IMG/VR virus record: IMGVR_UViG_3300009678_000065
Location: 1 to 61,922 of that record
DNA: 61,922 bases
Strand: one strand, 5' to 3'
Source of the DNA: a virus
Taxonomy: Duplodnaviria; Caudoviricetes
Positions 7,117-41,353 of the stretch are shown here, in pieces. The notes under the pieces were generated by a model. That model did no database searches. It worked only from the letters and a program-made list of their open reading frames with translations, and had not been told where the DNA came from. Position 1 is the first letter of the stretch, and each line of letters opens with the position of its first letter. Both the position numbers and the translations under genes were made by a program.

Positions 7117-7445
7117 TTGTGAATGCCTCCTGAAAGGTAACTGGTGATATACGAAAGGCCCGCAGCGATCATTCCACCGATGACGGTCGTGGTGACCCAA
7201 CGGATACTTCTTTGAGCACGAGTGACCGCACCTTCCACCTCGGTCAATCGTTTCTCCTGGTCGGCGGGTGGCGTCTGCTCAATAACCGTCACCCGCAATT
7301 CGTGATCCGCAATGGTCATCAAGAACGTATCGACCTTGCTCTCCAGACGGTTGCTGTCCTCCTTCATGTCCTTTTTGAGTGACGCGATGTCCTCGCTGAG
7401 TTCGTGCTTCATCTCAGTCAGGAACCGCTGCATGTCGAATTCCAT
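7113..7445 (-). CDS. Coiled-coil protein with C-terminal TM helix (holin/XhlA-like candidate)
   Basis: Heptad N-terminus then WVTTTVIGGMIAAGLSYI; first gene after the tail tip. Confidence 0.5.
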   Translation of the reverse strand: MEFDMQRFLTEMKHELSEDIASLKKDMKEDSNRLESKVDTFLMTIADHELRVTVIEQTPPADQEKRLTEVEGAVTRAQRSIRWVTTTVIGGMIAAGLSYITSYLSGGIHK

Positions 7446-14571: not shown

Positions 14572-15032
14572 CTACGTGATCTCGCTCTCTTCAGCTGCTG
14601 CGCCGTGGGCCTGGCCGGTCTTGCTGGCTTTGCCGGTGGACGTTGCGGCCTAGGTTTCGACAAGGCCTTCGACAGTGCGAAGTGCATCTTGGCGATCGAT
14701 TTCATGTGCTGCCAACCAGCGGTTGGCGGGGTCTCGGTCTTGCCTGGCGCATCCGGTTTCGTTTCGACGTCCTTGAATTCCAATAGGAAGTCGCTCGGAC
14801 TCATTCGTTTACGCGACCCACCCCGCATCAGCGTGGTGTTGTAGATCGCCGCGCAGATCGATGCAGCGTGGTAGTCGGCCCGTCGGTCCCCGAAGGGTTC
14901 GATCAGGTCAAACGCCCTCCACCACATCAGGTCGTCGAAGGACATGCGCTCCAGCATCCCTTCGACGTCCGTCTTCTTCAGGTAACCGGCCAACCGATGG
15001 GCAAAACGACGAAAGTCGTCTGCCCTTAGTCG
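14568..15032 (-). CDS. Tail assembly chaperone, -1 frame extension (gpGT/DUF4035-like)
   Basis: -1 frame reads KRLRADDFRRFAHRLAGYL..EPFGDRRADYHAA. Confidence 0.8.
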   Translation of the reverse strand, partial: RLRADDFRRFAHRLAGYLKKTDVEGMLERMSFDDLMWWRAFDLIEPFGDRRADYHAASICAAIYNTTLMRGGSRKRMSPSDFLLEFKDVETKPDAPGKTETPPTAGWQHMKSIAKMHFALSKALSKPRPQRPPAKPARPARPTAQQLKRARSRR

Positions 15033-15433
15033 TTTTTTCGGGCTTGCATCTCCGCTTCAGGATTCTCCAGCGCGGGCTTGTCGCCTTCCTTCTCGGCGTC
15101 CTTGAGTTCCTTCGGAACAGGGAACCCGTTCAGGAGGAGCACCTTGCGGAGGACCTTGCCGTTCTCCTGGGCGTCCTTCGCAGCGAAGTCCTTCACGGCC
15201 TCGTCGTATTCCTCGGGCGAGTACCGCGCGCCGGTGTCGTCGGTGACCGACTTCACGAGCAGGCGCAGCCCTGAGATCTTCTTCTTGAGCGGGTCGGCGT
15301 TGCCTTCGACCCACTCCAGCATGTCAGCGGACGACACGGAACCGATGCGGACGTCTTCCCCGTAGGCCGCAACGTTGTCGTACTTGACGTTGTTGACTTC
15401 TTTCGTGCGGAGCTTCGCAAGTGAAACAGACAT
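15026..15433 (-). CDS. Tail assembly chaperone (gpG-like)
   Basis: AAGGAG RBS; ends ..ARKND* over the slippery site; upstream of the tape measure. Confidence 0.8.
   Translation of the reverse strand: MSVSLAKLRTKEVNNVKYDNVAAYGEDVRIGSVSSADMLEWVEGNADPLKKKISGLRLLVKSVTDDTGARYSPEEYDEAVKDFAAKDAQENGKVLRKVLLLNGFPVPKELKDAEKEGDKPALENPEAEMQARKND
15032..15038 (-). other. Programmed -1 frameshift heptamer A AAA AAC
   Basis: CGA AAA AAC GAC TAA; a -1 shift joins the 14568 ORF. Confidence 0.8.
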
Positions 15434-15444
15434 TCAAATTCTCC

Positions 15445-15879
15445 TTATCCTGGACGTCGAACTGCGATCACGTTGAACGAGAAACGAGCTTGCTTACGGT
15501 CGTCCACCCCGGCATCGAACGGCTCCTGGAGTGGATTGATCTCACGGTACCAGCCTGAAAACTGAAACGACTGCGGTTCACGATAGACCAGCACGTTACG
15601 GATGCCTACCAGCGCGTCGTAGGCCAGCTGCGCCTTTGCCCGCGCGTTCTTGGATGAGTCCGCCCGCGCTAGGATCTGCGCGGCCGGGCGGATGTACGCG
15701 GGCGTGATGACCCTGTTCTGAGTTCGTTCTGGACCGGACCCGGAAGTTTCAGTGACGGTGATCGTCGCCGCGCCAGACGATAGCATTGGCACGGTCTGCT
15801 TCGTGGACACAAAGATATCCACGTTCAGCGTTCCCACGCCTGCCTCCTGCAGCAGCGTTACGATATCATCGGTCCACAC
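15445..15879 (-). CDS. Tail terminator / minor-capsid-like neck protein
   Basis: GVGTLNVDIF..ETSGSGP..RPAAQILARA..RFSFNV; neck position. Confidence 0.7.
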   Translation of the reverse strand: MWTDDIVTLLQEAGVGTLNVDIFVSTKQTVPMLSSGAATITVTETSGSGPERTQNRVITPAYIRPAAQILARADSSKNARAKAQLAYDALVGIRNVLVYREPQSFQFSGWYREINPLQEPFDAGVDDRKQARFSFNVIAVRRPG

Positions 15880-15884
15880 GGTGT

Positions 15885-16253
15885 TTATTTTCTCTCCCGG
15901 CAACGACGCGCTGCCGCTTCTCTTCGCTCTGGAGTCCAAGTAGCCCGTTGACGTTCCCTTTGTTCGTCGGTCCACTTCCACCTTTTCCGGTGAGGACCAC
16001 GTTTCTTTCCAAGCTGCCGGGCGCTGTGCGCTGCCCTCTGCTCAGGCGTCCATTTTGTGCCCCTGCTACGTGAACTCACGATGGCTTTGTACTCCGGGGA
16101 CCTGTGTTCGGCGTGCGTTTTATCCTCGTGGCAGTTCGCGCACAAATATTGCCAGTTAGATTCATCGTCCGCGCCTCCCATCCATTTAGGAATGACGTGG
16201 TCTTTATGAAGAGACTCGCGCCACACCCCACACTTAATGCAATACCCACTCAT
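15885..16253 (-). CDS. HNH endonuclease (paralog of 2919..3248) inserted among neck genes
   Basis: CIKC..DHVIPKWMGG..NWQYLCANCHEDKT; WTPEQR repeats. Confidence 0.85.
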   Translation of the reverse strand: MSGYCIKCGVWRESLHKDHVIPKWMGGADDESNWQYLCANCHEDKTHAEHRSPEYKAIVSSRSRGTKWTPEQRAAHSARQLGKKRGPHRKRWKWTDEQRERQRATWTPERREAAARRCRERK

Positions 16254-16639
16254 GAGTTCCAGGCTTTGTTTAGATCGATCCGTTTGGCCACGCGTGCTGC
16301 CATGAACGGTCTGGACTCCAAGAGAACACTTTCGATGTACTTCGCCTGTCCAACAGGATGATAGGCGTCAAGGTCTTCGTGAACGTAGATGGCGTAGGGC
16401 GCGGACGGCCCTCCAGCGACAATATTAGTCCAGACCGCATTGCCCTGTCGAGTAGGACCTTCCACATGTTCTGATGCACGAAGCTCACCAAACTCGACAG
16501 GTGTTCGTCGCTTAACTTCTTTAAGTTCGATCTGAGTCTCTTGATACAGTGCCTTGTCAGTCTGCTTCTGAAGATTACCCGCGAAGCGTCTGGCCTTGGC
16601 CGCAAATTGAGAGACTCCGTTAAGACTCGCTCCGGCCAC
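16250..16639 (-). CDS. HK97 gp10-like neck/tail completion protein
   Basis: KRRTPVEFGELRAS..YAIYVHE..GQAKYIE. Confidence 0.8.
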   Translation of the reverse strand: MAGASLNGVSQFAAKARRFAGNLQKQTDKALYQETQIELKEVKRRTPVEFGELRASEHVEGPTRQGNAVWTNIVAGGPSAPYAIYVHEDLDAYHPVGQAKYIESVLLESRPFMAARVAKRIDLNKAWNS

Positions 16640-17384
16640 GTGACTCTCTCCACTCGCGCAATTCCTTGTCGAGGTTGGCAGGGAGACGCTGCCCAACCTG
16701 TCGCCACCACACAGTCTCTTCAGCCACTTCCAAACAACGAGCTGATGCTACTGGTTCGATGACAGGGTTGGGATCGTCATAAGGCATCACGACGTTGACG
16801 TCTGCGGCAGCGAAAGGCTGCCCCGTTCTGATCGTCTCGTACTTCGCCGTGATCGCCTGCCGCTCCTCGCGGGTGCGAATGAGGAACACGTGGTGCTCAA
16901 GAAAGGCCGTTGCTGGCGCGCGGTAGGCCGGGTACGCGTGCGCGGCGTGGATCTTCACCGGGCGTCGGGACTGCCGCGCCACGCTCAAACGTGCCTGGAA
17001 GTCGGGGAAGTACGGCTGCTTGGCGATGCAATGCTGGACATCGGGCCACAGGTGCGCCCGCGAGAAGAACCAGGAGTCCCGACGAAACCACTCGTCGGTC
17101 TTCAACCAGTCGATCATGCCAGTTGAGCACCGTTCGTCGTCGTCAACCCGAAGGATGTAGTCGCCGGTGCAGGCGTCGAGAGCCTGATCGATCAGCTCTT
17201 CAAAGTACGATCCTTGGACCATGACATGCTTGATGTCATAGTCCTCCGCGAACCGCCGTGCGCGATCACCATGCGCGCCCAGGACAAACTCCGCGCCCAG
17301 CATGCGCGCCAGCATCTGAAATTCCAACAGGAACAACCTGGTGACCACTGTCGCATCACTGACGCACACGATACTGAGTTTCAT
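16620..17384 (-). CDS. GT-A fold (GT2-like) glycosyltransferase
   Basis: MKLSIVCV, ACTGDYILRVDDDE, PDFQARL. Confidence 0.78.
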   Translation of the reverse strand: MKLSIVCVSDATVVTRLFLLEFQMLARMLGAEFVLGAHGDRARRFAEDYDIKHVMVQGSYFEELIDQALDACTGDYILRVDDDERCSTGMIDWLKTDEWFRRDSWFFSRAHLWPDVQHCIAKQPYFPDFQARLSVARQSRRPVKIHAAHAYPAYRAPATAFLEHHVFLIRTREERQAITAKYETIRTGQPFAAADVNVVMPYDDPNPVIEPVASARCLEVAEETVWWRQVGQRLPANLDKELREWRESRGRSES

Positions 17385-18307
17385 TTGCTCTCCCGCACCA
17401 TCTGAGCTACTCGGTTGAAGTCGTCAGGAAACACTGCTCGATCATCGCGTCCGTCGATTAGCTGGAGGCCATGACCGTTTATTACGAAGTTCCAGGGCTG
17501 GACGTCGCCGTGCCTTTCGGCCGGGCGCGGGTACGACTCTACCATGCGCGCGACGTCCTCGCGCAGCGGAAAGGCCCCGCCCAGGCTGAGGAAGGTCTGC
17601 AGGTTGATGCCCGCGATCCAATTGCGCGTTTCGTTCTTGCGATGGAGCGTCACGATGCGCTGGCTTGGCGACGACAAGATGGTGACGCCACCCAACTCCA
17701 GATCATCGGGCGCGGTGAAGTACGCACGTCGGAGTGAGTTGCCGGGTGTCTCGAACAACCACATCGGCCGGTTGACCGGACCCACGTGGCTGGGCGTCTC
17801 GGCCAAGCGCGATGCCACCTGGCTATACAGCAGGTCGTAGATGTGCATGGCGTTGCTGTAGTTCAACGCCGATCCTTCACCGCTCGCGGGCGTCTCGATC
17901 ACCAGGTGGTCGCCCAGACGAAACAGCGACCGCAGCACGCTCTCGTATCGTTCAAAGTGGTGGACGACATTCAGCGCCAGCACCACGTCGAACTGTTCAC
18001 AGTTGGCTAGCTGCCACACGTCGTCCTCGCGCATGCGGTGCTTGAGGTGAAGGACGTTGGTCTTCTCGTTGGCTAGGCACTGGTAGAGCAAGCGCGGGTC
18101 GTCGTCGATCGCCACGATGGTGGCCTGTGGGAACTCCTCCGCGATCCGAAATGAGAAGTACCCGAGGGACGCGCCAAGGTCCAGCACGGTGAACGGCCGG
18201 GTGTACTTCGCCAGCAGCGGGCGCAGAGCCTCGTAACGGGACGCGCATTCGCGGACGCCGGTGCCCACGTTGCGGCCCTTCACCCACTGGTCTTGATACT
18301 GCTCCAT
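17381..18307 (-). CDS. SAM methyltransferase fused to kinase-like domain (WbdD-like)
   Basis: VLDLGASLGYFS, FDVVLALNVVHH; C-terminal RHGDVQPWNF..LID. Confidence 0.7.
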   Translation of the reverse strand: MEQYQDQWVKGRNVGTGVRECASRYEALRPLLAKYTRPFTVLDLGASLGYFSFRIAEEFPQATIVAIDDDPRLLYQCLANEKTNVLHLKHRMREDDVWQLANCEQFDVVLALNVVHHFERYESVLRSLFRLGDHLVIETPASGEGSALNYSNAMHIYDLLYSQVASRLAETPSHVGPVNRPMWLFETPGNSLRRAYFTAPDDLELGGVTILSSPSQRIVTLHRKNETRNWIAGINLQTFLSLGGAFPLREDVARMVESYPRPAERHGDVQPWNFVINGHGLQLIDGRDDRAVFPDDFNRVAQMVRESK

Positions 18308-18945
18308 CAGAGATACCTGTTCTTGAGCAGGACGTCGTCAGGAAAGACTTCAAGGACGCCGAATTCGGGCAGCATTTCCTTGATGCGGTTGAGCGTGGGC
18401 TGGCCCTCGTACATTTCCTCGTTGCTGTACTCGGTGTAAAAGTACCGAGTGCTTCTGAGTGTGCGCTGAGCACCCTGGATGAGATCCGCTTCCGCGCCCT
18501 GCACGTCGGCCCAGATCAAGTCAATGATCTGTCCCTCCATCTCGACCAGGGCCAGCGAGTCCAACCGCACCGATGGCACGGTGATCGACCGCTCGAACCG
18601 ACACCACGGGTACCGTCGTAGGTGGTTCTTCGGGCGACGAGTCGAACCGGAGTAGTGCCAGGTGAGGCCCGGCCACTGCGCCGTGGGTCGGCCATCGCTC
18701 TGGTGGAACGTCACCTCGCCATCCACTTGACCTACCGCCTTGGTGATCAGGCGGGCGCGCGGATCGGTCACGCGCTGGCGGAACAGTTCAGCAGCGTACG
18801 GTTCCGGCTCGAAGCTGTAGACGGTTGCGTACGGAAACAGGTCGAGGAACATCTGCGTGTGTTCCCCGTCGTTGCATCCGACGTCGAGGATCAACGGGTC
18901 CTCGCGTCGGATCAGCTCACGAATGCGCTCAGGCTTCAAGGGCAC
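18307..18945 (-). CDS. FkbM-family O-methyltransferase (NoeI-like)
   Basis: ILDVGCNDG, YSFEP, IDLIWADVQGAE, YTEY..MYEGQ. Confidence 0.88.
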   Translation of the reverse strand: MPLKPERIRELIRREDPLILDVGCNDGEHTQMFLDLFPYATVYSFEPEPYAAELFRQRVTDPRARLITKAVGQVDGEVTFHQSDGRPTAQWPGLTWHYSGSTRRPKNHLRRYPWCRFERSITVPSVRLDSLALVEMEGQIIDLIWADVQGAEADLIQGAQRTLRSTRYFYTEYSNEEMYEGQPTLNRIKEMLPEFGVLEVFPDDVLLKNRYL

Positions 18946-20101
18946 CCTCGATCGACTCCGCAAAGCGAGTCGCAATGTTGGTCCAGTTAAACCGTTCTTC
19001 GTTGGCCAGCAGCCAGCTTCGACGACCGAACTCCTCGCGCAACATCTCCGATCGGTAGAGCCTGTCGAGGGCATCGATGACATCCTTCTTCGCCGGGGCC
19101 GCGCCGATCATGCCGTTCACGTCGGGCATCACGCCCTCACTGTCGCAATCGGTGAGCCAGAAGGCGTCCTTGCCCCATTCCGCCAGGGCTGCAGTGCGCC
19201 CGGCCACAACCGGCAACCCGCAGGCTGCGGCCTCCAGGGCGGTCAACCCGAAGCCTTCGCCCAGGGCGGTGGTCAGATAGACGTTGGCTGCCTGGTAAGC
19301 AGCCGCGACGTACTTTTCCGGGGCACCGTTGTAGATGTCCTTCGGCGCAGCCAGGATCAATCGGTCCTCGACGCCATAGTACTTCGCCAGCTGGTCGCAG
19401 TCGATCGCAGCGGTGCTGCCCGGCAGGACGTGCATGTACAGATAGGCGTCTCGGATCTTGTTCGCGGTGATCCACTCCGCGAAGTAGATGATCGAGAGGT
19501 CGATGCGCTTGCGAGTCTGGTTGCGGTTGACGTTCACGACGATGAAAGAGTCGTCGGGCACGTCCGCATGGATGCCCAGCATGTGGCGCGCGGCCACGCG
19601 ATCACCGGGCTTGAAGACATCGGTGTCCACTCCCAACGGGATCACGTCGGTAGACACCTTCTTCTTGAGGCCACCTTTGATGGTCTCGTTGCGGCCGAAC
19701 TCCGTCCAGAAGATTGCCTTGGCCAGGCCGTTCAACTTTTCGCCGCCCACGTTCTTGCCCTCGACAGCGATGATGCCCACCAGCGGTGTCTCACCGTAGC
19801 CCTCGGCGTAGATCGCTCGACCGTACAGAGGTACGTGCCAGGGGTTGGTCTGCATGACGATCACGTCAGGTTTTGCCCGAGGAAGGACGTCGGACAAGCG
19901 GCCAATCCCGAGGGCATCCTTGCCCGGCCACGCTGGATAGATGTCGTACGTGCGCGGGGAGTCCACCATCGAGTCGCCGGTGAAGTTGACTCCGATGGCC
20001 GCGCACTTGAATCTGGTGGACAGGATCTTGAGGATTTGATCCGCTGCCCGGCCGAAGCCGCTGCTGCAGGACGCGTCACCGATGTACAGAAGAGACTTCA
20101 C
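18929..20101 (-). CDS. GT4 (GT-B) glycosyltransferase
   Basis: SGFGR, IPLGVDTDVF, NRNQTRKR, GEGFGLTALEAAACGLPVV. Confidence 0.9.
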   Translation of the reverse strand: MKSLLYIGDASCSSGFGRAADQILKILSTRFKCAAIGVNFTGDSMVDSPRTYDIYPAWPGKDALGIGRLSDVLPRAKPDVIVMQTNPWHVPLYGRAIYAEGYGETPLVGIIAVEGKNVGGEKLNGLAKAIFWTEFGRNETIKGGLKKKVSTDVIPLGVDTDVFKPGDRVAARHMLGIHADVPDDSFIVVNVNRNQTRKRIDLSIIYFAEWITANKIRDAYLYMHVLPGSTAAIDCDQLAKYYGVEDRLILAAPKDIYNGAPEKYVAAAYQAANVYLTTALGEGFGLTALEAAACGLPVVAGRTAALAEWGKDAFWLTDCDSEGVMPDVNGMIGAAPAKKDVIDALDRLYRSEMLREEFGRRSWLLANEERFNWTNIATRFAESIEGALEA

Positions 20102-20658
20102 AAAGCCACCCACTCCTTCGGAAAGCCTACGCGCACCACCTTATCAGCGTGCCAAGCCTTCGGATAGACGACGATCTTATTTGGATTCGGATTGAGATAC
20201 GCCGCCCACCATGAGAACGAGCTGTTGGCGATGATGTTGTGACGGCAGCTGGCCATCAAGTTCAGGTCTTCGATCTCGGTGCGCCCAGCCGAGTAGGTGT
20301 ATCGCTCTCCATACCACCGAGTCTTGCAGTACTCAATGTGATCGGAGAAGAATAGGAACCTGGTGTCGGTGGGGAACATCGCCATCGCTCTATCGTAGTA
20401 ATCCGTCTCCCACAGCTGGACGAACCCAGCGTGCTTGACATAGTCCCCGCGACGAATGTGAACCGCCACGAACGGTTCCTTCATTGGTTCGATGCCCTCG
20501 CTGAAGGCTTCCTTGATGTACTCCTCGGACCCGGCAAAGTGCTCCGGCGACTGCAGCCAGATGTCCGGGGTCAGACCACGACGCTGCTGCGCGTACAGGT
20601 ACGCCAGCTGAAACATTTGATTTCCCAACCGCCCGCTCATCAACCAGATCGGAATCAT
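20098..20658 (-). CDS. GT11 alpha-1,2-fucosyltransferase-like
   Basis: GRLGNQMFQ, VHIRRGDY, FSD, IIANSSFSWWAAYL. Confidence 0.9.
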   Translation of the reverse strand: MIPIWLMSGRLGNQMFQLAYLYAQQRRGLTPDIWLQSPEHFAGSEEYIKEAFSEGIEPMKEPFVAVHIRRGDYVKHAGFVQLWETDYYDRAMAMFPTDTRFLFFSDHIEYCKTRWYGERYTYSAGRTEIEDLNLMASCRHNIIANSSFSWWAAYLNPNPNKIVVYPKAWHADKVVRVGFPKEWVAL

Positions 20659-21302
20659 GTACGCCTCGCATGCACGACGACGCGATGGTCTTCGTGAACG
20701 GTTTCTGCAGTGAAGCCCACCATCTTCAGCCAGTGATGCACCAACGGAACGTTGGGACCGAAGAACTTATGGTGGAACGAGTTGGGATTGTCCGACTCCA
20801 TATAGACCAAGGCCGGGCGCGTCTCCGTAAAATGTTCACGGCCCTCTTGGCTGGCCGACGCGGTATACGTTTCCAGGATCAGGAGATCATCAACGACGCT
20901 GGCTACGCTTTCAAGGGCCAGCAGCGGGTGCCGCAGGTGGTAGAGCACGCCGAGAAAGAACACCACGTCGAACTTGCCGATGCGCTCCGGGGTGTGGTCT
21001 AGGATGTCGAGGTCGATCGCTTCGACCTTGGACCCGAGGGCTGCATGGGCGTAATCAAACCCAGCCTTGCCCGTGGACTGATGCCACATCCAATGGTCGG
21101 TCGCCACTACGCGCGCGGCCCCACGCTTCTCAGCTTCAAACGCGTAGAAGCCGTCCCAGGTACCGATGTCGAGCACCGATTTTCCGGTCAGGTCGGGCAG
21201 GCAGAGCTTTCGGACTTCGCCCTCGGGGAAGCAACGGCCAGGGGTGACCACCCCATCGCCCAGGTCGATGGAGTGCCACCAGTTGATGTCAGTAATTTTC
21301 AT
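20655..21302 (-). CDS. Class I SAM methyltransferase (CmoB/DUF1698-like)
   Basis: WWHSIDLG..VTPG, VLDIGTWDGFYAFEAEKRGA, FDVVFFLGVLYHL. Confidence 0.85.
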   Translation of the reverse strand: MKITDINWWHSIDLGDGVVTPGRCFPEGEVRKLCLPDLTGKSVLDIGTWDGFYAFEAEKRGAARVVATDHWMWHQSTGKAGFDYAHAALGSKVEAIDLDILDHTPERIGKFDVVFFLGVLYHLRHPLLALESVASVVDDLLILETYTASASQEGREHFTETRPALVYMESDNPNSFHHKFFGPNVPLVHHWLKMVGFTAETVHEDHRVVVHARRT

Positions 21303-21580
21303 GTCCTGACATCCTCCTCTTCGAGGAAGGATTTTAGATCCTTTCTGTAGTGAAACCACTCATTGTGAATTCGTAGATGAGCAAATCGTGTGTGAAAACT
21401 ATGCTCATCAGCAAGAGTGCCAGGCAGGAACAAAAGAACTTTTAGTGGATACGGACTATGTCGTCGAAATTCAACCATGCGGTCAACGCGATTTTTAGTG
21501 GTGAAGCCAATTTTCACTGCGTCGTTATTACACAGTACAAAATAGACATGACCCCTAGTTGTACCGCCACGAAAACCCAT
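21299..21580 (-). CDS. GIY-YIG (T5orf172-like) nuclease
   Basis: VYF..VKIGFT..E..H.RF..R..EWF; AT-rich. Confidence 0.8.
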   Translation of the reverse strand: MGFRGGTTRGHVYFVLCNNDAVKIGFTTKNRVDRMVEFRRHSPYPLKVLLFLPGTLADEHSFHTRFAHLRIHNEWFHYRKDLKSFLEEEDVRT

Positions 21581-24521: not shown

Positions 24522-24950
24522 TTACGGCAGGAAGATCTGACCGCCACTCGGCCGGATCGAGATGCTCGCTTCCTGAGCACCGTCAACCGGAGCCTTCAGA
24601 GCGATGTTGGTCACGAAGCCTGAGAACATCCAGGTCGCGCCATCGGGGAACTCGATGTCGTACTTGTCCTTCGAGCCAGTCGCCCATGCGTCGAGCAGCC
24701 CGGTGGATGCGTCGTGAGTCGCTTCGTCGAACGGCAGCCAGTTCACCATGAACTGCAGTTCGCCCTTGCGGCGGATACCGACGACGTACGAGTCGTCATC
24801 GGAGTTGTGGGTCGTCGTCTCAATCGGGTTACGGCTCAGAGGCGGAGGCGTGATGTCACGCAATTCCGCAACCGGAGTACCGTTCCGCTTGATGATCGTA
24901 CCGTGCGCGGAGATGCCGTTCGATTCCGCCCCGGTATTGATGACAGGCAT
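24522..24950 (-). CDS. Major tail tube protein (lambda gpV-like)
   Basis: VAELRDITPP.LSR..IETTTH..GIRRKGELQFMVNWLP..IEFPDG.TW.FSGFVT..SIRPSG; no other intact tube gene in the tail module. Confidence 0.85.
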   Translation of the reverse strand: MPVINTGAESNGISAHGTIIKRNGTPVAELRDITPPPLSRNPIETTTHNSDDDSYVVGIRRKGELQFMVNWLPFDEATHDASTGLLDAWATGSKDKYDIEFPDGATWMFSGFVTNIALKAPVDGAQEASISIRPSGGQIFLP

Positions 24951-33607: not shown

Positions 33608-35857
33608 TCAAAATGGCAGGTTCTTCTTCGGGTTCCCAGAGTCGGTTGGCCCATTGGACACAGGCCCGTCGCTCTCTTCCCACGTTGTTTTCGTCCCTGC
33701 CATCGAATCAAACAGCTCGCGCGCTTCGTTCAACGGCAGCACAGTACGTCGAGCTGACCTAGTGCCATCGGCCGCGCGTGCTCGCACTTCCTTCCCGAGC
33801 CAGGGCTTGAGCACCCGGCGTGCCATGTCGATCTCTGAGACTCGTCGGTTGATCTTCATGTCATCACACCACCGAAGGTACTCGGCATGGACGATACGGA
33901 CTGACACATCGTTGGGCCAAGGTTCGTCGTTCAGCTCGCCCATACGCAGGCGATCTTTCCACCACCGTTGCTCCGGTGTCAACGACATCTCCTGTTGTTC
34001 CCGCAGCTCGTTGGTCATAGGCACACGACGGATGTCATCGTGGTCCACCTGGCGCGTCAACAGGTACGACAGCAGGGCCGCTTTGCCCGCGTTGTTCATC
34101 TCCTTGTTGATGGCGTTGAAGTACGCGTGGTCTTGAAGGTGCGCGCTGCTGACCTTGAGTGAGAAGAACCGTCGCTCTTTGAACGACGCCTGGTGGGCGT
34201 GGTCGTTATTGGTCGCCATGATCAGGTGGATGCAGTTGTTCTCTTCGACGACGTCGATGCCCTTCCGCTCAATCGAGAGCGTGGGTTCGCTGATCAACCG
34301 CTTCAGTGATCCCAGGTCCTTCTTGTCGCCCGCGAAGAAGGCCTCGTCAGCGAAGATGACGATCTTGCTGCTGATGGCCGCGTTGAATTTGCCAGCGAGC
34401 TGTTCAGTGCGATCGAGGTGGGTGTAGTGACGGCCGAACAGGCTGCCGAACGTACGGGCAAAGGTTCCTTTGCCCGTACCTAGTTCGCCTTTCATCATCA
34501 CACTCACTTCGATGGGAATGCCAGGTTGCTGGACTGTAAGAGCCATCCACTTCAGGAGGTAGTCGTAGTACTCTTGGTTGCCGTCGCAGATCACCTCGAA
34601 CATCATGTCCAGGTACTTCTGACACCCAGCCTTGGCGTGTTGGTCCGCCCACTCGCGGAGCGTGTCGCGACTGGATCGATCGGCTTCGTTCTCCGGCAAC
34701 AACGGCTCGACCGAGAATCCAATCCAGAGGTTGTAGTCCTTCTCGTGACAGGTCAGTGGAGGTGGCCAGAAGCCTACCGTGCGATAGGATCTCTTCTTCG
34801 GGTGCTCGCGCCAGATCTCGAACTTGGTGCGAAAGACGTTGACCTCGGCCGTGGTTTCCTTGCCGTCGTCACCCTTGGTCTTCTGTTTCTTGGTGCCGAT
34901 CTTCACGCGCTGGTTGGCGTACTCCTCGAACAGTGCACGGGCTGGTTGGAAGACCACGCCGGTGTCGGTCTCCAGGCCGTACACGTAGTCCTTGCCGACG
35001 CGGGCACCGAAGCGATGGGCATTCATCTCGCTCACCAGGCCGTCGAACACCGCAGTGTTGGAACCGTACCACTTGATGAGAAGTGCGACGACCTCTTTGC
35101 CCAGCTCTGCTTCCAGGTAAGGTCCGCCAGCGATCTTGCCACCAGCGTCGAAGTTCAAGACGGTGTCGCGCGCTACACGTGTGCGATCCTCGATCTCGTC
35201 GTCCTTGGCGATGGTAGCTGCCAGGCGAATGATGTCCTCGATCTCCTTGGACGCCAGGCCACGTGCGGCCAAGAACCCAGCCGCGTGGCCCGCAGCGTTG
35301 TGCCGCGCGCCACTCGGCCAGTGACGCGCCAGCAACGCAGCCGTGGCCGTCGAACGCGCGGCCAGGCGCAAGAGTTCCTGCTCCACGGTGGCGGGGACGT
35401 CGCCGGGCAGGTCCGATGGCTGGCCGTCCACGAGCCAGAAGAGCTTCTCTCCACTGGGGTGAGTGCTCGCTGGTACTACGGTCTGCCCTCCAGTGGAGCG
35501 AAGCTCGACGAGGACCTTGCCATCGGTGTCCAGCCACCGCTCGCTCTTGTTGACGCCTTTGGCGATGTACCAGTAGTGGCTGACGCCCACGCTTTGCCGA
35601 CCGTGCCTTCGCGCGGTTGGCAACATGATGTCGTTGGCCGCGATGACGGCCTCTGGGCAGTCCAGGTCTACGTCCACCAGGTGACCGGATGGTTCGCCCA
35701 GGCGGATGCCGATGTTGTCGTTCTCCAGAAAGTCCTCGACGGAGAACGTGCGGTTGACCCAGTCTTTAACTTCAGGAGCCTTGCGGCCGTAGGGGATCGG
35801 TAGCACCGACCACCCTTCAGACATGTATCGTTGGACCAGAAAGCGGGTGTCACTCAT
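33608..35857 (-). CDS. Bifunctional primase-polymerase (Prim-Pol) fused to SF3/D5-like helicase
   Basis: NIGIRLG..DVDLD, HYWY, TVVPASTHPSG; GELGTGKGT, FADEA, ATN, RRF. Confidence 0.92.
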   Translation of the reverse strand: MSDTRFLVQRYMSEGWSVLPIPYGRKAPEVKDWVNRTFSVEDFLENDNIGIRLGEPSGHLVDVDLDCPEAVIAANDIMLPTARRHGRQSVGVSHYWYIAKGVNKSERWLDTDGKVLVELRSTGGQTVVPASTHPSGEKLFWLVDGQPSDLPGDVPATVEQELLRLAARSTATAALLARHWPSGARHNAAGHAAGFLAARGLASKEIEDIIRLAATIAKDDEIEDRTRVARDTVLNFDAGGKIAGGPYLEAELGKEVVALLIKWYGSNTAVFDGLVSEMNAHRFGARVGKDYVYGLETDTGVVFQPARALFEEYANQRVKIGTKKQKTKGDDGKETTAEVNVFRTKFEIWREHPKKRSYRTVGFWPPPLTCHEKDYNLWIGFSVEPLLPENEADRSSRDTLREWADQHAKAGCQKYLDMMFEVICDGNQEYYDYLLKWMALTVQQPGIPIEVSVMMKGELGTGKGTFARTFGSLFGRHYTHLDRTEQLAGKFNAAISSKIVIFADEAFFAGDKKDLGSLKRLISEPTLSIERKGIDVVEENNCIHLIMATNNDHAHQASFKERRFFSLKVSSAHLQDHAYFNAINKEMNNAGKAALLSYLLTRQVDHDDIRRVPMTNELREQQEMSLTPEQRWWKDRLRMGELNDEPWPNDVSVRIVHAEYLRWCDDMKINRRVSEIDMARRVLKPWLGKEVRARAADGTRSARRTVLPLNEARELFDSMAGTKTTWEESDGPVSNGPTDSGNPKKNLPF

Positions 35858-36194
35858 AGGAACGCTTCTGCGCTTCGTTCTCTTCGCGCGTTTGCCAGGC
35901 CAGGTGGCCGGGGTTCACGCAGCGTGAGTTCTCGCCGTAGGGACATGTGTGACCAGCTTCGTGCTGATCGGTGGGTGGAGGCCCAGCGTACCACGTCAGG
36001 AGGAGCCGCGCCACTAACACGACGCGCGTACCTCTCCCGCCTAACTGGATCACCGGCCGCGCGCCTCGTCGGCTCTTGATGAAAGCGCCGAGCCAGTTCC
36101 AGCAGCCGGTGGTCTCGTCCTCCAGGATCTTAGAGACGACGCGACCGAGGAGAGTACGGGTACCCTCCTCGATCGGTTGAGCGACGTTGCCCAC
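35850..36194 (-). CDS. HNH endonuclease (zinc-binding loop type)
   Basis: GCWNWLG..HTC..CVNPGHL..T..EN. Confidence 0.8.
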   Translation of the reverse strand: MGNVAQPIEEGTRTLLGRVVSKILEDETTGCWNWLGAFIKSRRGARPVIQLGGRGTRVVLVARLLLTWYAGPPPTDQHEAGHTCPYGENSRCVNPGHLAWQTREENEAQKRSYE

Positions 36195-36490
36195 TACGCG
36201 TTGATCGGTGCGCCCATCACTTCAAAGTTGTGATTGGGCAGGTCCACCTTCGTGAGAAGATCCAGCCGCGTGAGCGGCGAGGGTTTCCCAACTGCCCGTC
36301 TGGTCTTGGGGTCGATCGCTTGCACCTTGACGTACGGCACGTTGCCGCTCCACGTTGGACGCACCGCGATCTCCAAGACGTGCGCCAGGGTGACCCAGAG
36401 GCTCGACGATTGCCGCCCTGGGTAGATGAGGTAGTCCCCGACCTTGATCGGTTTGCCGAGGACGTCGGTGACGACAAGCGGTTCGTTCAT
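36194..36490 (-). CDS. Small beta-barrel (SH3-like) hypothetical protein
   Basis: DVLGKPIKVGDY; coupled to neighbours. Confidence 0.55.
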   Translation of the reverse strand: MNEPLVVTDVLGKPIKVGDYLIYPGRQSSSLWVTLAHVLEIAVRPTWSGNVPYVKVQAIDPKTRRAVGKPSPLTRLDLLTKVDLPNHNFEVMGAPINA

Positions 36491-37059
36491 AGCGGGAGTA
36501 GCTCCTTGTTGGGCAGGTAGTTGAGCGTCATGGTGATCTCGCCCATCCGACGCAGGCCGGGGATCATCACCTGGTCTCGATCGGGCGTGCCACCGAATTG
36601 CCCGCCGTACGTCACGTCGATCATCTCCCGGTGCATGGACGGCGCGCTGATCGACTCCAGTTCCGCCACCACGACCCCATCGATCTCCAGCATCGTCGGC
36701 TTGGCCGAGCGAACCTTCGCAGCCCTACTTCGGGGTTCCCGAACAGGACGTGGGGCGGGGCATCGCACGCTGACCTCTTTGAATTCGCCTGTAGGCCGGA
36801 TGCCGATGTCCATTGTGGCCTGGCCGTCATCGGACTCGTTCATCGTCTGGTTGGTCACGAAGCCCATGAACTCGTAGCTGATGGTCTGGCCGTGCTCTTG
36901 GAAGGTGATCAGGAACTTCTTGACCCCATCTGCGAGAGCCGTTGGCGCAAGAACCGTGGGCGCTTCCGGCGCGAGGGCACGTTCGAGCACCACCTGCGGG
37001 TTGACCGCGAGGGCCGCGCCTGCGGCACCCATCCATTGGAGGAAGGTTCGGCGGTTCAT
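36487..37059 (-). CDS. Tat-signal protein that is a circular permutant of the tail tube protein
   Basis: MNRRTFL twin-arginine signal; aa ~42-91 align to tube aa ~87-136 and aa ~121-183 to tube aa ~17-73. Confidence 0.8.
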   Translation of the reverse strand: MNRRTFLQWMGAAGAALAVNPQVVLERALAPEAPTVLAPTALADGVKKFLITFQEHGQTISYEFMGFVTNQTMNESDDGQATMDIGIRPTGEFKEVSVRCPAPRPVREPRSRAAKVRSAKPTMLEIDGVVVAELESISAPSMHREMIDVTYGGQFGGTPDRDQVMIPGLRRMGEITMTLNYLPNKELLPL

Positions 37060-37343
37060 GATGGGACGTCTTCCAAGTAGAGACCAGCGTTTCTCGTGTC
37101 GGCCACGTAGTCGTGTGTGCCCATCTGGTCATGCGCAGGGTTCATGTGGGTGTGCCAGATTGAGTCTTTGATGCGACCGCACCTACACGGCGCAGGACCG
37201 TTGCGCTCCAGGATCGCCGCGTCCAGTACACCGTGAAGAGCCTGGTGCATGAAGGCGCGGAACTTCCTCGTGAACGCCTTGTTGCCCGCGCGACGACGGG
37301 AACGCCGTCGTCGCATGCGGAGCAGTTGCTTGTTGCGGCTCAC
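37056..37343 (-). CDS. Arg-rich hypothetical protein
   Basis: Coupled overlaps with both neighbours. Confidence 0.55.
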   Translation of the reverse strand: MSRNKQLLRMRRRRSRRRAGNKAFTRKFRAFMHQALHGVLDAAILERNGPAPCRCGRIKDSIWHTHMNPAHDQMGTHDYVADTRNAGLYLEDVPS

Positions 37344-37630
37344 ATCGTCACCAAAGGAACGTTCAGTTCCACGTGGTATTCGTAGAGACCGTCACCGATG
37401 TAGCGACGGTGCAACGTGTGGTTGCCGAACGATGCCTTCCGTACGTTGCGTAGCTGCGCGCTGACGCTGGCCGGAGGATCGTTGGTGGCTTGGGAGATCT
37501 GCGGCAGCGTACGCCACACCCCATCCCTCATCAGGTTGAAGATGCGTTCGTACTGCGAAGCCAACCGTTCTCCATCTCTGGGGCGTTGGTAGTCAGCCCC
37601 AGAGAATCGTCCCACTTGTGGAGTGTCCAT
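37340..37630 (-). CDS. Winged-HTH DNA-binding protein
   Basis: IFNLMRDGVWRTLPQISQAT..ASVSAQLRNVRK..GLYEY. Confidence 0.75.
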   Translation of the reverse strand: MDTPQVGRFSGADYQRPRDGERLASQYERIFNLMRDGVWRTLPQISQATNDPPASVSAQLRNVRKASFGNHTLHRRYIGDGLYEYHVELNVPLVTM

Positions 37631-37637
37631 GCCCGGC

Positions 37638-37868
37638 TTACCGACGGCGCTCGACGACGCCTTCCAGGGCCGCGATGTCGGTGCGGAGGTTCGAGATGCG
37701 CGGCGCGTTGTCTTCCTGCACGCGCTTGGCGTCAGCGCTCTCGGCCTGGAGGTTCTTCAGCTCCGACTGCATGGTCGAGATGCGGAGGTTGAGCGAGTAC
37801 GTGCTCAGTCCCGAGTGATCGCGGGCGGTGATCTGCGCGCGGGTTGGTGCCTTGGCCTTGCTTCCCAT
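37638..37868 (-). CDS. Small coiled-coil protein
   Basis: GAAGGAG RBS; heptad pattern. Confidence 0.6.
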   Translation of the reverse strand: MGSKAKAPTRAQITARDHSGLSTYSLNLRISTMQSELKNLQAESADAKRVQEDNAPRISNLRTDIAALEGVVERRR

Positions 37869-37902
37869 GTGTGTGCTCTCCTTCGTGGTTGACGTTCGTG
37901 AA

Positions 37903-37963
37903 ACCGCCCGAGCGGGAATTGCACCCGCGCGACCCTGGCCGCGATCTGATGTCACTAGGCGGT
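37903..37963 (-). ncRNA. Small tRNA-like RNA (T-arm, no anticodon arm)
   Basis: ACCGCCT/GGGCGGT closing stem, GCGGCC/GGTCGC stem, GCGGG-TGCAATT-CCCGC 5-bp/7-nt T-arm. Confidence 0.45.
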
Positions 37964-37969
37964 CGTTGA

Positions 37970-38572
37970 CTACCTCGCCCAGCCCGCGTCGATCGACGGG
38001 TTGGTGTCCTGGACACAGACTTCGTACTCAAACCCCAGGACCTTCTGGTTCGAGCGGTTCTCCATGCGCCGGATGACTCCGCGATAGAAGTCCTCCGCGC
38101 TGAAGGGACTGACCGACCGCTTGGTGAGGTACCAGCGGTTGCCGCGATACAGGTCGCGGCTCGACATCGGGATGTTGCCCAGCATCGGGCCTTCCAGCTT
38201 GACGTGGCACTCGTAGTACACCGGCCGCTCTTCGGCGGTCATGATGTTGACTTCGTGCTTGACCCGAACAACGCGCGCGTCCTTGTAGTCGGCCCCGAGC
38301 TTCTCGATCAACACTTCGGGGTCCTCGCCCAGGGCACACATCAGCTGCAAGTTCATGTTGTTCAGCTCGATGTGCAGCGGCTTGACGTCGAGGTCGTGGC
38401 AGAAGTTGAACCAGTCAATCGGGTTGATGTCCTCGACGGTGACGTGGTACTCCTCGATGCGTTCAGCGGGCTTGAAGGGGCTGTGATCACCCTTGTGGTT
38501 TTTGTCGAGGGCGCAGAGCACTAGCTCCGAACCCGCTTCGATCTTGAAGTCACACGTTTCACGCTTCGCCAT
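37970..38572 (-). CDS. Hypothetical protein with ExHV/RxKxE motifs
   Basis: EYHVTV, RVKHE, YYECHVK, EVCVQDTN..DAGW; TAATG coupling. Confidence 0.6.
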   Translation of the reverse strand: MAKRETCDFKIEAGSELVLCALDKNHKGDHSPFKPAERIEEYHVTVEDINPIDWFNFCHDLDVKPLHIELNNMNLQLMCALGEDPEVLIEKLGADYKDARVVRVKHEVNIMTAEERPVYYECHVKLEGPMLGNIPMSSRDLYRGNRWYLTKRSVSPFSAEDFYRGVIRRMENRSNQKVLGFEYEVCVQDTNPSIDAGWAR

Positions 38573-39012
38573 TAGTTTCTCCCAAAGACTCGGTAACGGG
38601 TTTCCACCATCCACACTCGGTCGGTCCCGAGTTCACGAAAGAAGTACACCGCGCCTGTAATCGTCACGGTGATGCGGTCGCGCCAGGTCTTCTCCCAGGC
38701 CACCGACCAGTCTTGCTCGAAGAACGTGCCGCCCTGCTTTAGATCGAACCACCAGGACCCGCTAACCGTGAAGTTGGCTACGCACATTTCCACGCCAGGC
38801 ACGGATGCGAGCGTCCATGTCCCGGTTGCGATGTTGTACACCCGGCCGTGGGTGGCGGTGAGGTCCAGCGTTTGCGCGCGGGCGGGCGTTGGTGCAAGAA
38901 CCAGGGCCAGCAGCACGCTGAGCAGGCAGATCTGGATGAAGCGCTTGGCAAGGAACACCAGCAGCTTGGCGGTGAGCAACCCGGCGACGACGGCGAGGAG
39001 GGGTGTCAACAT
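38572..39012 (-). CDS. Exported small beta-barrel-like (outer-membrane-type) protein
   Basis: Hydrophobic leader ending ARA-Q, then amphipathic aromatic beta-strands. Confidence 0.55.
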   Translation of the reverse strand: MLTPLLAVVAGLLTAKLLVFLAKRFIQICLLSVLLALVLAPTPARAQTLDLTATHGRVYNIATGTWTLASVPGVEMCVANFTVSGSWWFDLKQGGTFFEQDWSVAWEKTWRDRITVTITGAVYFFRELGTDRVWMVETRYRVFGRN

Positions 39013-39279
39013 TTGTGGTCTCGTGTTGGGAACGAACCCTACGGCTGCAAGCCCTGGTCCAGTTTGATCTCGTAGGGCTGGCCGTTGATGGTGACCCTGC
39101 AGCCACCGTACGTGAGCGTGGCCAGCGTGAACAGAATGCACACGACACCGATTGCACCGAGAAACGATTTCATCGACTCAACTCCTTCAAAGCCCGCGCG
39201 CAAATGTACGCGCGGATGGGATCGCAACACATCACCAGCACGTAGGCGACGGCCAGCGCAATGATCACGAGTGGAACGC

Positions 39280-39528
39280 TCATGGTTCTCCTGCTTCCTT
39301 GTACAGTCGTGCGGCCGACTTCTGTTCGCGGGCCGTTGCCTGCGGTAGGTCCTCGCAGAATGGACACTCTACTTGGCCTGTCTGCACCTGCTTCTCCAGG
39401 TAGCCTGGTGGCAGCGATGCCAGCTGGTGTTGGGTCAGGCTGATCTTGTGGTGGCACTCCAACCAGATGATCATCCGACGCTGCGAGGCCATCGCGTCAA
39501 CGACCCGCATGATCTTTTGCATTCTCAT
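39280..39528 (-). CDS. Zn-finger hypothetical protein
   Basis: LECHH..CPFC; ATGA overlap. Confidence 0.55.
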   Translation of the reverse strand: MRMQKIMRVVDAMASQRRMIIWLECHHKISLTQHQLASLPPGYLEKQVQTGQVECPFCEDLPQATAREQKSAARLYKEAGEP

Positions 39529-39857
39529 AGGTCGTACCCGAAGGGATCGTCGGGGTTGAGCCGGGCCTGGGCCGCGTCCTCGGCCTGCTTGGCCAGGCGA
39601 CGGGCCTGCCGACGTTCGGCGCGGTGCGTCAACCACTTGGAGAACCGACCCCAGACGCCCATGCGGGGACCAGGGCGACGGCACGGGCCGCATCGCGGCG
39701 GTGAAGACGACGGCGGGTTGAACATGGCGACGATCACCAGCACCACCGCGCCTAGCATGACCCTGTCGCTGTCATAGATTCCTCTTGGCCCACTTCCAAG
39801 TGACGTGGCCGATGAAGATGCCGAGTCCCGCGCCCACCAACCCGGCAAGTACGTGCA

Positions 39858-40460
39858 TCACTTGCGCCAGCTCACTCCGAACCTGGCGTAACGCACTGCG
39901 AACTGCGCGCGGACCATGTCGGGAGTCATGTGCGTCATGTACTTCGGCAGGCGCGGAGCAATCTCTCGCATCTGCTTCACCGTTGAATGGGTGATCCACT
40001 CTTCGGCCACGGCCTGGTCAAGGTCGTAGTTCACCTTGAAGTCGCGCTGGTAGCGCAGGGTAATGCGCTCGAACACCGCAGCCAGGTCGTCGGCCACCTT
40101 GATCTCGTGCTTCTCTTCGGGTGTCAGCCCGTGGTACCCGAGGGCCAAGGCGCAAGCCTCGTCCCACTGCGCCTCCAGCGCGCGGAACCACACCATCTCG
40201 GGTGCGTGTTTCAGCTTGCTGGACATATCACCGAGGTAGGCTTCCGGGTTGTCGTGGTTCAGCGCTGGGAAGGACAAGGCCGGGCGCACCAGGTCTCCCA
40301 CGAGACAGGCGTGCTGCCCGACCGCATAGAACTGTCGGATCTGGCCGGTGTACCTGCAGAGGTTGGCCAGGGCGACGATGATGTCCTCGATGGAGATGTC
40401 AGCTGGCTTGGGGTTGCCCAAGTCCAGCCGACGTCCCGTGGCCGTGAAGAAGGCAATCAC
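39858..40460 (-). CDS. HD-domain phosphohydrolase (YfbR/YfdR-like)
   Basis: IEDIIVALANLCRYTGQ..QH..HDNPEAYLGD..IKVAD. Confidence 0.85.
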   Translation of the reverse strand: MIAFFTATGRRLDLGNPKPADISIEDIIVALANLCRYTGQIRQFYAVGQHACLVGDLVRPALSFPALNHDNPEAYLGDMSSKLKHAPEMVWFRALEAQWDEACALALGYHGLTPEEKHEIKVADDLAAVFERITLRYQRDFKVNYDLDQAVAEEWITHSTVKQMREIAPRLPKYMTHMTPDMVRAQFAVRYARFGVSWRK

Positions 40461-40699
40461 GCGCGTGTGACGGCGCGGGCGCGTTCGCCCTTGCCCGGTT
40501 CCTTGTTGGGTTCGGTGTACGGCTCGAACACTACGTCGATGCCCTCTTCCAGTTCCTCAACCGGGATGTCCGTGTTGTTGAAGTGAAAGAAGCGTTCGAC
40601 GCCGCCCTCGTCCTTGATGAAACCGTAGCCCGCGCCACACCCTCGTTCGATGCGGGCACCTGGCTTGGCCTTCTTGATCGCAATGATGCGTCCGTTCAT
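40457..40699 (-). CDS. Cold-shock domain protein
   Basis: GYGFIK (RNP1), FFHF (RNP2), KGERARAV. Confidence 0.85.
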   Translation of the reverse strand: MNGRIIAIKKAKPGARIERGCGAGYGFIKDEGGVERFFHFNNTDIPVEELEEGIDVVFEPYTEPNKEPGKGERARAVTRA

Positions 40700-40713
40700 G
40701 TGACTCCCCGGAG

Positions 40714-41109
40714 TTAAGCTGCTGTTTGTTGGAGTGATGCACGTCGCGCTGACTCTGCACGTTGGCGATGGCGTTGCCGCTTCAGCGCCTTGCTGAGAGC
40801 CTTACCCAGCCGTTGGCCAGGCAAAACGTGTCGCAGGCTTCCATCCGTAAAGAACTGCATGGGCTTCTTGTCGAGCATGCGAACGAAGGCACCGGCGATG
40901 CCGCGCGCCACTGGAACCCTGTGCAGGTTCTTGAGAGTGGTGTAGGGAGTGCGAGGACGGTACTTCTTCTTGCCCTTGGGACGCTCCTGTAGCATCCCAG
41001 GAATGTCGCGGGCCGCTTTCACCAGGCGGGCAAAGGACTTGCCGACGCCAGCCATCTCGGCTCTCGTGCGCTTGAGGTTCTCTTTGAACTGCTTGACCAC
41101 ACCCATCAT
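40714..41109 (-). CDS. Highly basic hypothetical protein
   Basis: GAAGGG RBS; K/R-rich. Confidence 0.55.
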   Translation of the reverse strand: MMGVVKQFKENLKRTRAEMAGVGKSFARLVKAARDIPGMLQERPKGKKKYRPRTPYTTLKNLHRVPVARGIAGAFVRMLDKKPMQFFTDGSLRHVLPGQRLGKALSKALKRQRHRQRAESARRASLQQTAA

Positions 41110-41182
41110 GTTCGTGTCCCCTTCGTTTTGATCGTTGAGATGCGAGGTGCTCGACCACCAGGTGGTGATCGAGCGGTCCTCG

Positions 41183-41353
41183 TTACGCCAGCTTGAAGCC
41201 GACGCGCTTGGCCAGGAGCGATTCGATGAAGCTGTTGAGCGACACGTCGCCCGCAGCCTTGATCACCGCTGCCTTGAGTCCCTTGCGGAACCGCAGGACC
41301 ACCTGCTCTCGGCCGGTGCCCGCCTTCTTCGCTGCCTTCTTCTTGGTTGCCAT
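41183..41353 (-). CDS. Ribbon-helix-helix (Arc/HicB-like) regulator
   Basis: QVVLRF..LKAAVIKAA..SLNSFIESLL; AGGAG RBS. Confidence 0.75.
   Translation of the reverse strand: MATKKKAAKKAGTGREQVVLRFRKGLKAAVIKAAGDVSLNSFIESLLAKRVGFKLA

Follow-up and report, generated by a model that had tools for sequence, protein, structure and literature searches.

Tail tube proteins are, to our knowledge, regarded as strictly cytoplasmic units of phage assembly. In the accessible text of PMC10721106, the N-terminal domain of lambda gpV (gpV-N) is a β-sandwich flanked by a helix; the helix and the O-loop make up the exterior of the tube ring, and stacked rings touch through the N-, E- and C-terminal loops. The window analysed here, the complete virus record IMGVR_UViG_3300009678_000065 (61,922 bp, 60% GC, with nearly every gene on the minus strand), contains beside an ordinary tube gene a second, 190-amino-acid (aa) open reading frame (ORF; 36487..37059), whose product, here called the permuted protein, carries a twin-arginine translocation (Tat) signal motif in front of a tube domain with its two halves in swapped order. 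There is good support for regarding this protein as an exported tube paralogue with a permuted chain. Both halves share homology with the gpV N-domain tubes (Phage_TTP_12 and Phage_TTP_11; PDB 2K4Q, 6P3E and 9MFE) and keep their core motifs; the protein differs from these tubes in the order of the halves, in a linker that stands for the N-terminal arm and C-terminal tail, in the signal and spacer at its N-terminus, and in a gene position outside the tail module.

Three further systems lie close to this locus. The Tat pathway carries folded proteins together with their bound partners, and its substrates share the consensus S/T-R-R-x-F-L-K. The N-terminus of the permuted protein fits this consensus and the Pfam TAT_signal model, as classical substrates with signals like that of CueO do; it differs from them in its passenger, a cofactor-less paralogue of a virion protein that is encoded by a phage. 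The CueO signal-peptide chain 9E04_H is picked up by the family profile at an E-value of only 0.48. The second system is Ltp, a Sec-dependent lipobox lipoprotein of a temperate phage with an unrelated fold, whose target is reportedly the tape measure protein. Ltp of Streptococcus phage TP-J34 is presented in the accessible text of PMC3952083 as a superinfection-exclusion lipoprotein of the cell surface. The likeness lies in a phage-encoded protein at the outer face of the membrane (a predicted location for the permuted protein) that is said to act on a tail protein to stop DNA entry; the permuted protein differs in having a Tat signal, no lipobox and a tube-derived fold, and exclusion would be attributed to it by analogy. 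The third system, the bacterial defence HXS, employs a periplasmic effector that blocks phage DNA entry (PMC13128918, accessible parts). The idea of a periplasmic protein gating phage DNA entry is common to both; according to the same parts of PMC13128918, HXS differs in being host-encoded and matured by a radical S-adenosylmethionine (rSAM) enzyme, it is unrelated in sequence, and the Tat signal in that work is an engineered CueO tag only.

A tail tube domain in permuted order

Within the window, BLASTP aligns aa 118-186 of the permuted protein with aa 14-76 of the 142-aa native tube protein (35% identity, E 3e-9) and aa 41-91 with aa 88-136 (38% identity, E 7e-6), in swapped order. When a profile built from 13 native tube proteins is run against all six frames of the complete record, with matches reported to E<=1, it returns the native gene (8.7e-59) and two segments of the permuted gene, 36502-36717 (profile 5-72, 1.1e-17) and 36781-36954 (profile 79-135, 1.0e-7), with no further match at that threshold. 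Both searches bear out the original prediction, made from the letters and their ORFs, that the halves are exchanged relative to the native protein. The PHROG profile phrog_158 (major tail protein) matches the permuted protein at E 1.2e-6 across aa 127-185 only, and Pfam tube models give no match to it at E<=0.1; among 21 aligned members of its family, Phage_TTP_11 (PF16460) is matched in 6 and Phage_TTP_12 (PF16461) in 5 at E<=0.01. The family profile also matches lambda gpV residues 105-156 with its C-like part (E 0.004-0.01). Conserved core motifs of the tube, namely ..P..M.R..DVT.., G.RR.GE.T, FPDG, G.VT and P.G, are retained. On these alignments, the protein is very probably a permuted tube homologue, and a β-sandwich would be the expected fold of the permuted chain. 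In the ESM Atlas, whose results serve as leads only, the nearest named clusters to residues 38-190 are all phage tube families (score 0.90).

The native protein used as reference is itself securely placed: its product matches lambda gpV PDB chains at E ~1e-4, its closest cultured relatives are annotated as major tail protein, and its gene is the only native-order tube gene detected in six frames, where PF16461 matches nothing else. Coordinates of both genes are collected in Table 1.

Table 1. Parts of the permuted gene and the native tube gene, in coordinates of the window
Feature	Coordinates	Strand	Remarks
Whole ORF of the permuted protein	36487..37059	(-)	190 aa, ATG start; predicted Tat signal, then circularly permuted tail-tube domain
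aa 1-19, twin-arginine signal	37003..37059	(-)	MNRRTFLQ, uncharged hydrophobic region (h-region), ALA at aa 16-18
aa 20-44, Pro/Ala-rich spacer	36928..37002	(-)	42% Pro+Ala in the window protein; mean pairwise identity 0.22
aa 45-91, tube C-terminal strands (native 95-136)	36787..36927	(-)	BLASTP, hhalign, six-frame profile
aa 92-117, Pro/Arg/Lys-rich linker at the native C-tail/N-arm junction	36709..36786	(-)	No similarity to native termini
aa 118-186, tube N-terminal strands and E-loop (native 14-76, up to ~80)	36502..36708	(-)	BLASTP, hhalign, phrog_158
Native-order tail tube protein, reference paralogue	24522..24950	(-)	142 aa; Pfam Phage_TTP_12 E 1.9e-11; phrog_158 'major tail protein' E 5e-16

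The swap can be undone. When the columns of the family alignment are re-ordered by script and compared by hhalign with the native tube alignment, the re-permuted profile gives an alignment of 114 columns (template 14-139 of 147) with a score of 174 and E 7.8e-31, a value that, like the other hhalign E-values, stands for a single comparison with a native set chosen from matches to the permuted family's own profile; the profile in its original order aligns over only 78 columns with a score of 111. Taken by part, the C-like region alone gives E 8.8e-15 and the N-like region alone E 6.8e-20 (5.8e-18 in a separate hhalign run). The permuted protein itself departs from the colinear order of the tube domain, and only the re-permuted profile is colinear. 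The original prediction had made its reading depend on alignment of the re-permuted sequence to tail tube families; the colinear alignment stands for native relatives picked from the permuted-profile matches, rather than for curated tail-tube families. Both segments are significantly similar to the parent, occur in swapped order and cover the parent core, as in a circular permutant.

Across the family, the N-like part covers native residues 14-94 and with them the helix, and the C-like part begins at 95, so that the new termini lie just after the helix. The window protein stops earlier, at about native residue 80, and most of the helix is absent from it. The native N-terminal arm (residues 1-13) and C-terminal tail (137-142) are replaced by a linker of 11-29 aa, comparable to the 23 native residues replaced. 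The earlier proposal of a chain opened near the helix with loss of the native N-terminal arm is thereby upheld, with the break fixed between native residues 94 and 95 across the family. Since the gpV helix lies on the outside of the ring and the break follows the helix, the new termini and the signal tether would lie outside. By analogy with gpV, the sandwich core and the E-loop would be kept, and the two ring-contact arms would be fused into the linker.

A 15-nucleotide identity between the two genes, GGCTTCGTGACCAAC (36850-36864 on the minus strand, equal to 24606-24620), codes for GFVTN. The original prediction had noted this match as a trace of kinship at the DNA level; the identity is real, and its meaning was overread. 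All five codons are the commonest synonymous codons of the phage, the chance of the same codon choice being ~0.03, and the aligned blocks outside the match reach only 52-56% DNA identity. A shared motif written in preferred codons, together with this low block identity, rules the match out as a sign of recent duplication.

The permuted protein belongs to a family. A word-indexed search finds four close relatives (64-86% identity), and an exhaustive HMMER search of 1.84 billion representatives with a profile of these close relatives gives 33 matches at E<=1e-3, consisting of 18 permuted proteins (154-223 aa), 12 native-order tube proteins (133-155 aa), most of them aligned in two stretches, 2 fragments and 1 repeat protein. 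Four members are added by further profile search. The permuted order is the same in all 26 permuted sequences examined, whose identity goes down to ~25%. The fragments P0005 (114 aa), P0019 (86 aa) and P0031 (37 aa) are excluded from every family count, and P0002 is left out of the A2 alignment and the tree and included in the count of arginine pairs. The repeat protein, P0023 (1092 aa), was rejected as a relative, its similarity being weak, rich in Ala, Val and Thr, and inflated by repeats. A weak search for longer fused forms of the permuted protein found none. The permuted family is small and apparently undescribed.

In a maximum-likelihood tree of 21 re-permuted and 13 native sequences, the two groups are split on one branch with support 100/99, a value that the artificial junction of the re-permuted sequences could inflate. 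This topology fits one old permutation event followed by divergence, rather than recurrent duplication of the tube gene within individual phages. The permuted chain most likely arose from a tandem duplication of the tube gene that was trimmed at both ends; in this chain, the post-helix strands would come first, followed by a new Pro/Arg-rich linker and then by the N-terminal strands, the E-loop and, in most members, the helix. The twin-arginine signal and the Pro/Ala spacer would have been added in front of this domain.

The linker is the least conserved region of the family (mean pairwise identity 0.19; counted there as aa 92-120), with a length of 11-29 aa and of 68 aa in one member. A basic mid-linker was considered as a conserved feature and dropped, as the net charge is +4 to +7 in 9 of the 21 members and the linker is not basic in the others. 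In P0010 (L008 109-780), the mid-linker holds a 45-aa insertion with four Cys (..RCPRHP..KNCFTCQ..), possibly a small metal-binding knuckle. In the excluded fragment P0031, the h-region of the signal is joined straight to the last strand of the protein; this entry resembles either a variant of the window gene with a deletion or an artefact of its assembly or gene calling.

The twin-arginine signal and its conservation

The MNRRTFLQ motif of the window protein is followed by 21 uncharged residues, and Pfam TAT_signal matches aa 1-19 with 25.6 bits against a gathering cut-off of 22.7 (E 1.1e-5), in agreement with the typical Tat signal claimed from the sequence at the outset. Among all six-frame ORFs of the window, the pattern of an arginine pair plus a hydrophobic run is matched by this ORF alone. 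The motif [NST]RRxFL[QAK] is found in 21/26 family sequences. The remaining five begin downstream of the motif position, and three of them start at a Met right after the arginine pair of their closest relatives, which read SISRRMFLASIPAL; conservation of the pair in homologues, which the original prediction had demanded, is thus observed wherever the sequence includes that position. An uncharged run of at least 13 residues follows the pair in 20/21 permuted members and in 0/12 native tube proteins, and TAT_signal is matched at E<=0.01 in 9/21 aligned members. The signal region is the best-conserved part of the family, with a mean pairwise identity of 0.49 as compared with 0.36-0.45 in the core strands and 0.19-0.23 in the linkers. 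Judging by this motif and its conservation, the protein is probably a genuine Tat passenger, and aa 20-44 may serve as a tether or spacer between signal and domain.

A different role for the same N-terminus has to be weighed. The protein might stay in the cytoplasm and influence how the phage builds its own tails, whether as cap, timer or chaperone-like mimic of the tube, with the arginine pair as part of a membrane-targeting or chaperone-binding tag. The preservation of core residues shared with the native tube protein would suit such a role, as would the second Tat model, from NCBIfam, which stays below its cut-off. It is rendered unlikely by the complete Tat consensus and h-region, which are preserved as the best-conserved region among sequences with just 25-35% identity, and by the location of the gene with replication genes, 12 kb from the tube gene and at least 20 kb from the remaining tail genes. 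Moreover, a tube mimic in the cytoplasm would be expected to poison assembly.

Reports of such a protein were sought in the literature, in part through titles and the beginnings of abstracts. Within that scope, neither a permuted nor a Tat-exported tube protein is described, consistent with the earlier statement that no permuted, exported tail tube had been reported. Where judged from titles or the beginnings of abstracts, matches to 'permut*' concern genome ends, and the one co-mention of Tat and the tail tube that was examined consists of pyocin parts in an exoproteome table. A 2026 review of Tat (PMC13673990) uses 'phage' 4 times in its accessible text, none of them on a phage-encoded Tat substrate.

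Gene neighbourhood, divergence and distribution

The permuted gene sits in the replication region, outside the tail module (7.4-16.7 kb). The gene order is compact, with small ORFs, the permuted gene, a 98-aa ORF, an HNH endonuclease and a 749-aa primase in succession, and ATGA overlaps occur at both ends of the permuted ORF, between its ATG and the upstream stop and between its stop and the downstream ATG. In the three loci with sufficient surrounding sequence (G000, G001 and L009), the gene is beside primase/helicase genes and not in a tail module; in L009, it comes after a helicase/primase gene, a small terminase gene and a 143-aa ORF. The related-locus searches were made with the sub-alignments A3, A4, A6 and A7. 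A promoter scan of 35800-41200 found 0 promoter-like sites, and the terminator-like sites of this interval are 2 overlapping ones at 40590-40607 only, not above shuffles. A compositional anomaly of the gene was considered and dropped, its GC content of 0.61-0.63 being the same as that of its flanks.

Comparison with the 56-kb relative G001 separates the permuted gene from its surroundings. The tube proteins of the two phages are 95% identical, and the permuted proteins only 74-77%. The permuted gene and its G001 orthologue have a ratio of nonsynonymous to synonymous substitution rates (dN/dS) of 0.275 at dS 0.59, as against a dS of 0.02-0.2 for the flanking HNH, primase and 98-aa genes. The permuted gene is under purifying selection and far more diverged than its flanks. 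Homology between the window and G001 resumes exactly at the ATG (37059), upstream of which G001 has other sequence in place of 37060-37245 and lacks 37353-37637; contigs (contigs only) of three other runs share this junction at 37059. Phage genes directed at hosts or rival phages commonly show a mosaic, diverged pattern of this kind. The small genes upstream of the permuted gene (37060-37637; L003 9552-10000) form a variable cassette, and one X3 contig shows the same differences there as G001.

These data bear on the notion that the gene is either what is left of a duplicated tube gene in decay or a product of misassembly, its N-terminal arginine pair being there by chance. The rarity of the family and its restriction to metagenomes would agree with it. 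It is extremely improbable in view of a reading frame that is intact in 26 diverged sequences from independent assemblies, the low dN/dS, the conserved motif, and the presence of the gene on contigs of three further runs.

Among phages at large, the gene is scarce. A tblastn search of 50,697 phage records with the window protein, P0009, P0007, P0025 and P0039 as queries gave none, and neither megablast of 18 kb of the window nor a plasmid search gave a match; pattern scans of prokaryote genome contigs with a few degenerate peptide patterns, a weak negative, gave none either. G001 alone carries the gene among the viral contigs searched, and a metagenome scan adds two short contigs. The runs that hold the stretch are labelled groundwater, possibly the source, and freshwater or freshwater sediment, with mostly small shares. 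Weak hints point to a diderm or alphaproteobacterial host: the capsid is nearest to Brevundimonas phages (36%) and the terminase to Rhizobium phages (35%). The endolysin is of the single-domain T4-lysozyme type, and no tRNA and no spanin-like lipoprotein pair were found in the window, which has one lipobox ORF only.

Several neighbouring and more distant genes deserve mention. Four genes upstream of the permuted gene, 38572-39012 (minus strand; L003 8177-8617) encodes a 146-aa protein with two hydrophobic N-terminal segments ending in ..ARA|QT and a β-rich remainder. The protein is conserved in G001 and matches nothing in PDB or PHROG. By its appearance it is exported or lies in a membrane, and it may represent a second early protein directed to the envelope. 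The 214-aa ORF at 37970-38614 (minus strand) has no family or PDB match, and its dN/dS of 1.6 against G001 is unreliable at 3% amino-acid difference. PDB sequence searches with these two neighbours and with 5024-5644 gave no match. HNH endonuclease genes occur three times (35850-36194, 15885-16253 and 2919-3248); one of them breaks up the tail module, and another, two genes downstream of the permuted gene, encodes a protein 100% identical to the G001 copy. In the lysis region (4.5-7.4 kb), ~30 kb from the permuted gene, the lipobox ORF (6199-7116, minus strand; MKRIVVALLVGVFAAS-C) encodes 305 aa with Pro-rich stretches and a weak CarboxypepD_reg match, and adjoins genes for an XhlA-like membrane protein (7113-7445), an SPFH protein (5641-6192) and the T4-lysozyme-type endolysin (4537-5034).

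The native tube gene is itself displaced. It is placed in the head module, with the scaffold/protease genes on one side and the decoration/capsid genes on the other, and the position usual for a tube gene, flanked by the tail terminator (15445-15981, PF12691) and the chaperones, is vacant (15026-15981). In Brevundimonas phage StAshley, whose capsid is the nearest among cultured relatives, no gene separates scaffold from decoration, and in L010 a native-order tube gene is found inside a normal tail module. The structural module also contains an inserted block of genes for glycosyltransferases and methyltransferases (16620-21359; phrog_2644, 2170, 8156, 9361 and 14544), which separates the head-tail adaptor from the Neck1/tail completion gene; the virion may be glycosylated.

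Proposed function at the cell envelope

The permuted protein would be made together with the replication genes and folded in the cytoplasm, from which the host Tat system would carry it in folded form to the outer face of the cytoplasmic membrane or into the periplasm, either released or tethered. Because Tat carries folded proteins, this route suits a domain that evolved to fold in the cytoplasm. The exported domain may then act as a tube mimic that binds, on an incoming siphophage, either the tape measure protein or the open end of the tube, and such binding would block genome delivery, leading to superinfection exclusion or protection of the infected cell. The whole chain, from permuted paralogue through Tat export to exclusion by tail mimicry, is put forward tentatively and falls short of being probable as a whole. 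A weapon-like form of it, in which the folded tube domain is exported to cap a tube end or trap a tape measure protein and might carry a bound partner out, is conceivable and rather doubtful. No integrase or repressor was found among the ORFs tested, and any exclusion would therefore be of the lytic-phage kind.

That absence of temperate functions is among several observations that speak against the proposal. The NCBIfam model TIGR01409 scores 15.2 bits, below its cut-off of 16.7, and signal-peptidase cleavage is uncertain, several members having, as judged by eye, a Pro right after the best AxA-like site. The proposal presupposes a host with a Tat system and a periplasm. The ESM Atlas model of the protein has a predicted local distance difference test (pLDDT) score of 0.58, and its structural matches to tube families reach template modelling (TM) scores of only 0.27-0.44. 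The E-loop differs by an indel of 7-8 aa between orthologues that are 74-77% identical, which could point to relaxed constraint instead of an arms race. The rarity of the family is a further point, and all ten of the clusters looked up are singletons from metagenome assemblies.

Export could also serve other ends. The original prediction proposed, besides superinfection exclusion, an anti-defence bait, whose tube domain would bind a tube-recognising host sensor or foreign tube subunits and remove them by piggy-back export through Tat. The general capacity of Tat for folded proteins with bound partners would allow this, and the gene position suggests that the tube look-alike is made before the virion genes; no defence context or partner is known, and neither fusion nor linkage to a sensor-related domain appeared in the family searches. 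A decoy for a cytoplasmic sensor would work without export and needs no export signal, yet the Tat region is the most conserved part of the protein, and exclusion at the envelope is for this reason ranked above the bait, which we regard as quite improbable.

At a similarly small probability, the periplasmic tube-like domain would be a sensor or regulator that detects superinfecting tails or ejected proteins and signals to lysis timing, in the manner of the T4 antiholin RI. RI, an exported phage protein whose signal peptide is reportedly cleavable, offers a precedent, and the predicted envelope location of the permuted protein agrees with it; the distance of ~30 kb to the lysis region and the lack of an identified holin partner argue the other way. 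Host take-over at the envelope, by jamming or occupying the Tat translocon or by hiding a receptor or an envelope protein from progeny that would otherwise be wasted on debris, carries equally little weight. Llp of phage T5 masks its receptor in this manner and keeps progeny from loss on cell debris. A conserved Tat signal joined to a rapidly folding domain, encoded among early genes, would be appropriate for such a task, which leaves the retention of a tube fold with conserved core motifs unexplained.

Exclusion by an exported tube mimic remains the preferred reading, and it gives the tube fold a place outside virion assembly. In conclusion, a tube fold that is re-threaded and preceded by a Tat signal in a conserved family suggests recruitment for work at the cell envelope. 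The family provides a clean natural example of circular permutation in a virion protein and a concrete candidate for a novel mechanism by which the delivery of phage genomes is blocked or sensed, and its phage-encoded Tat passengers form a class that the literature searched does not mention. If the proposal is true, no earlier exclusion or counter-measure protein would have come from a tail tube, and no earlier family of Tat passengers would be specific to phages. If the tape measure protein or tube ends are bound, the protein may become a tool for the poorly understood periplasmic step of siphophage DNA entry.

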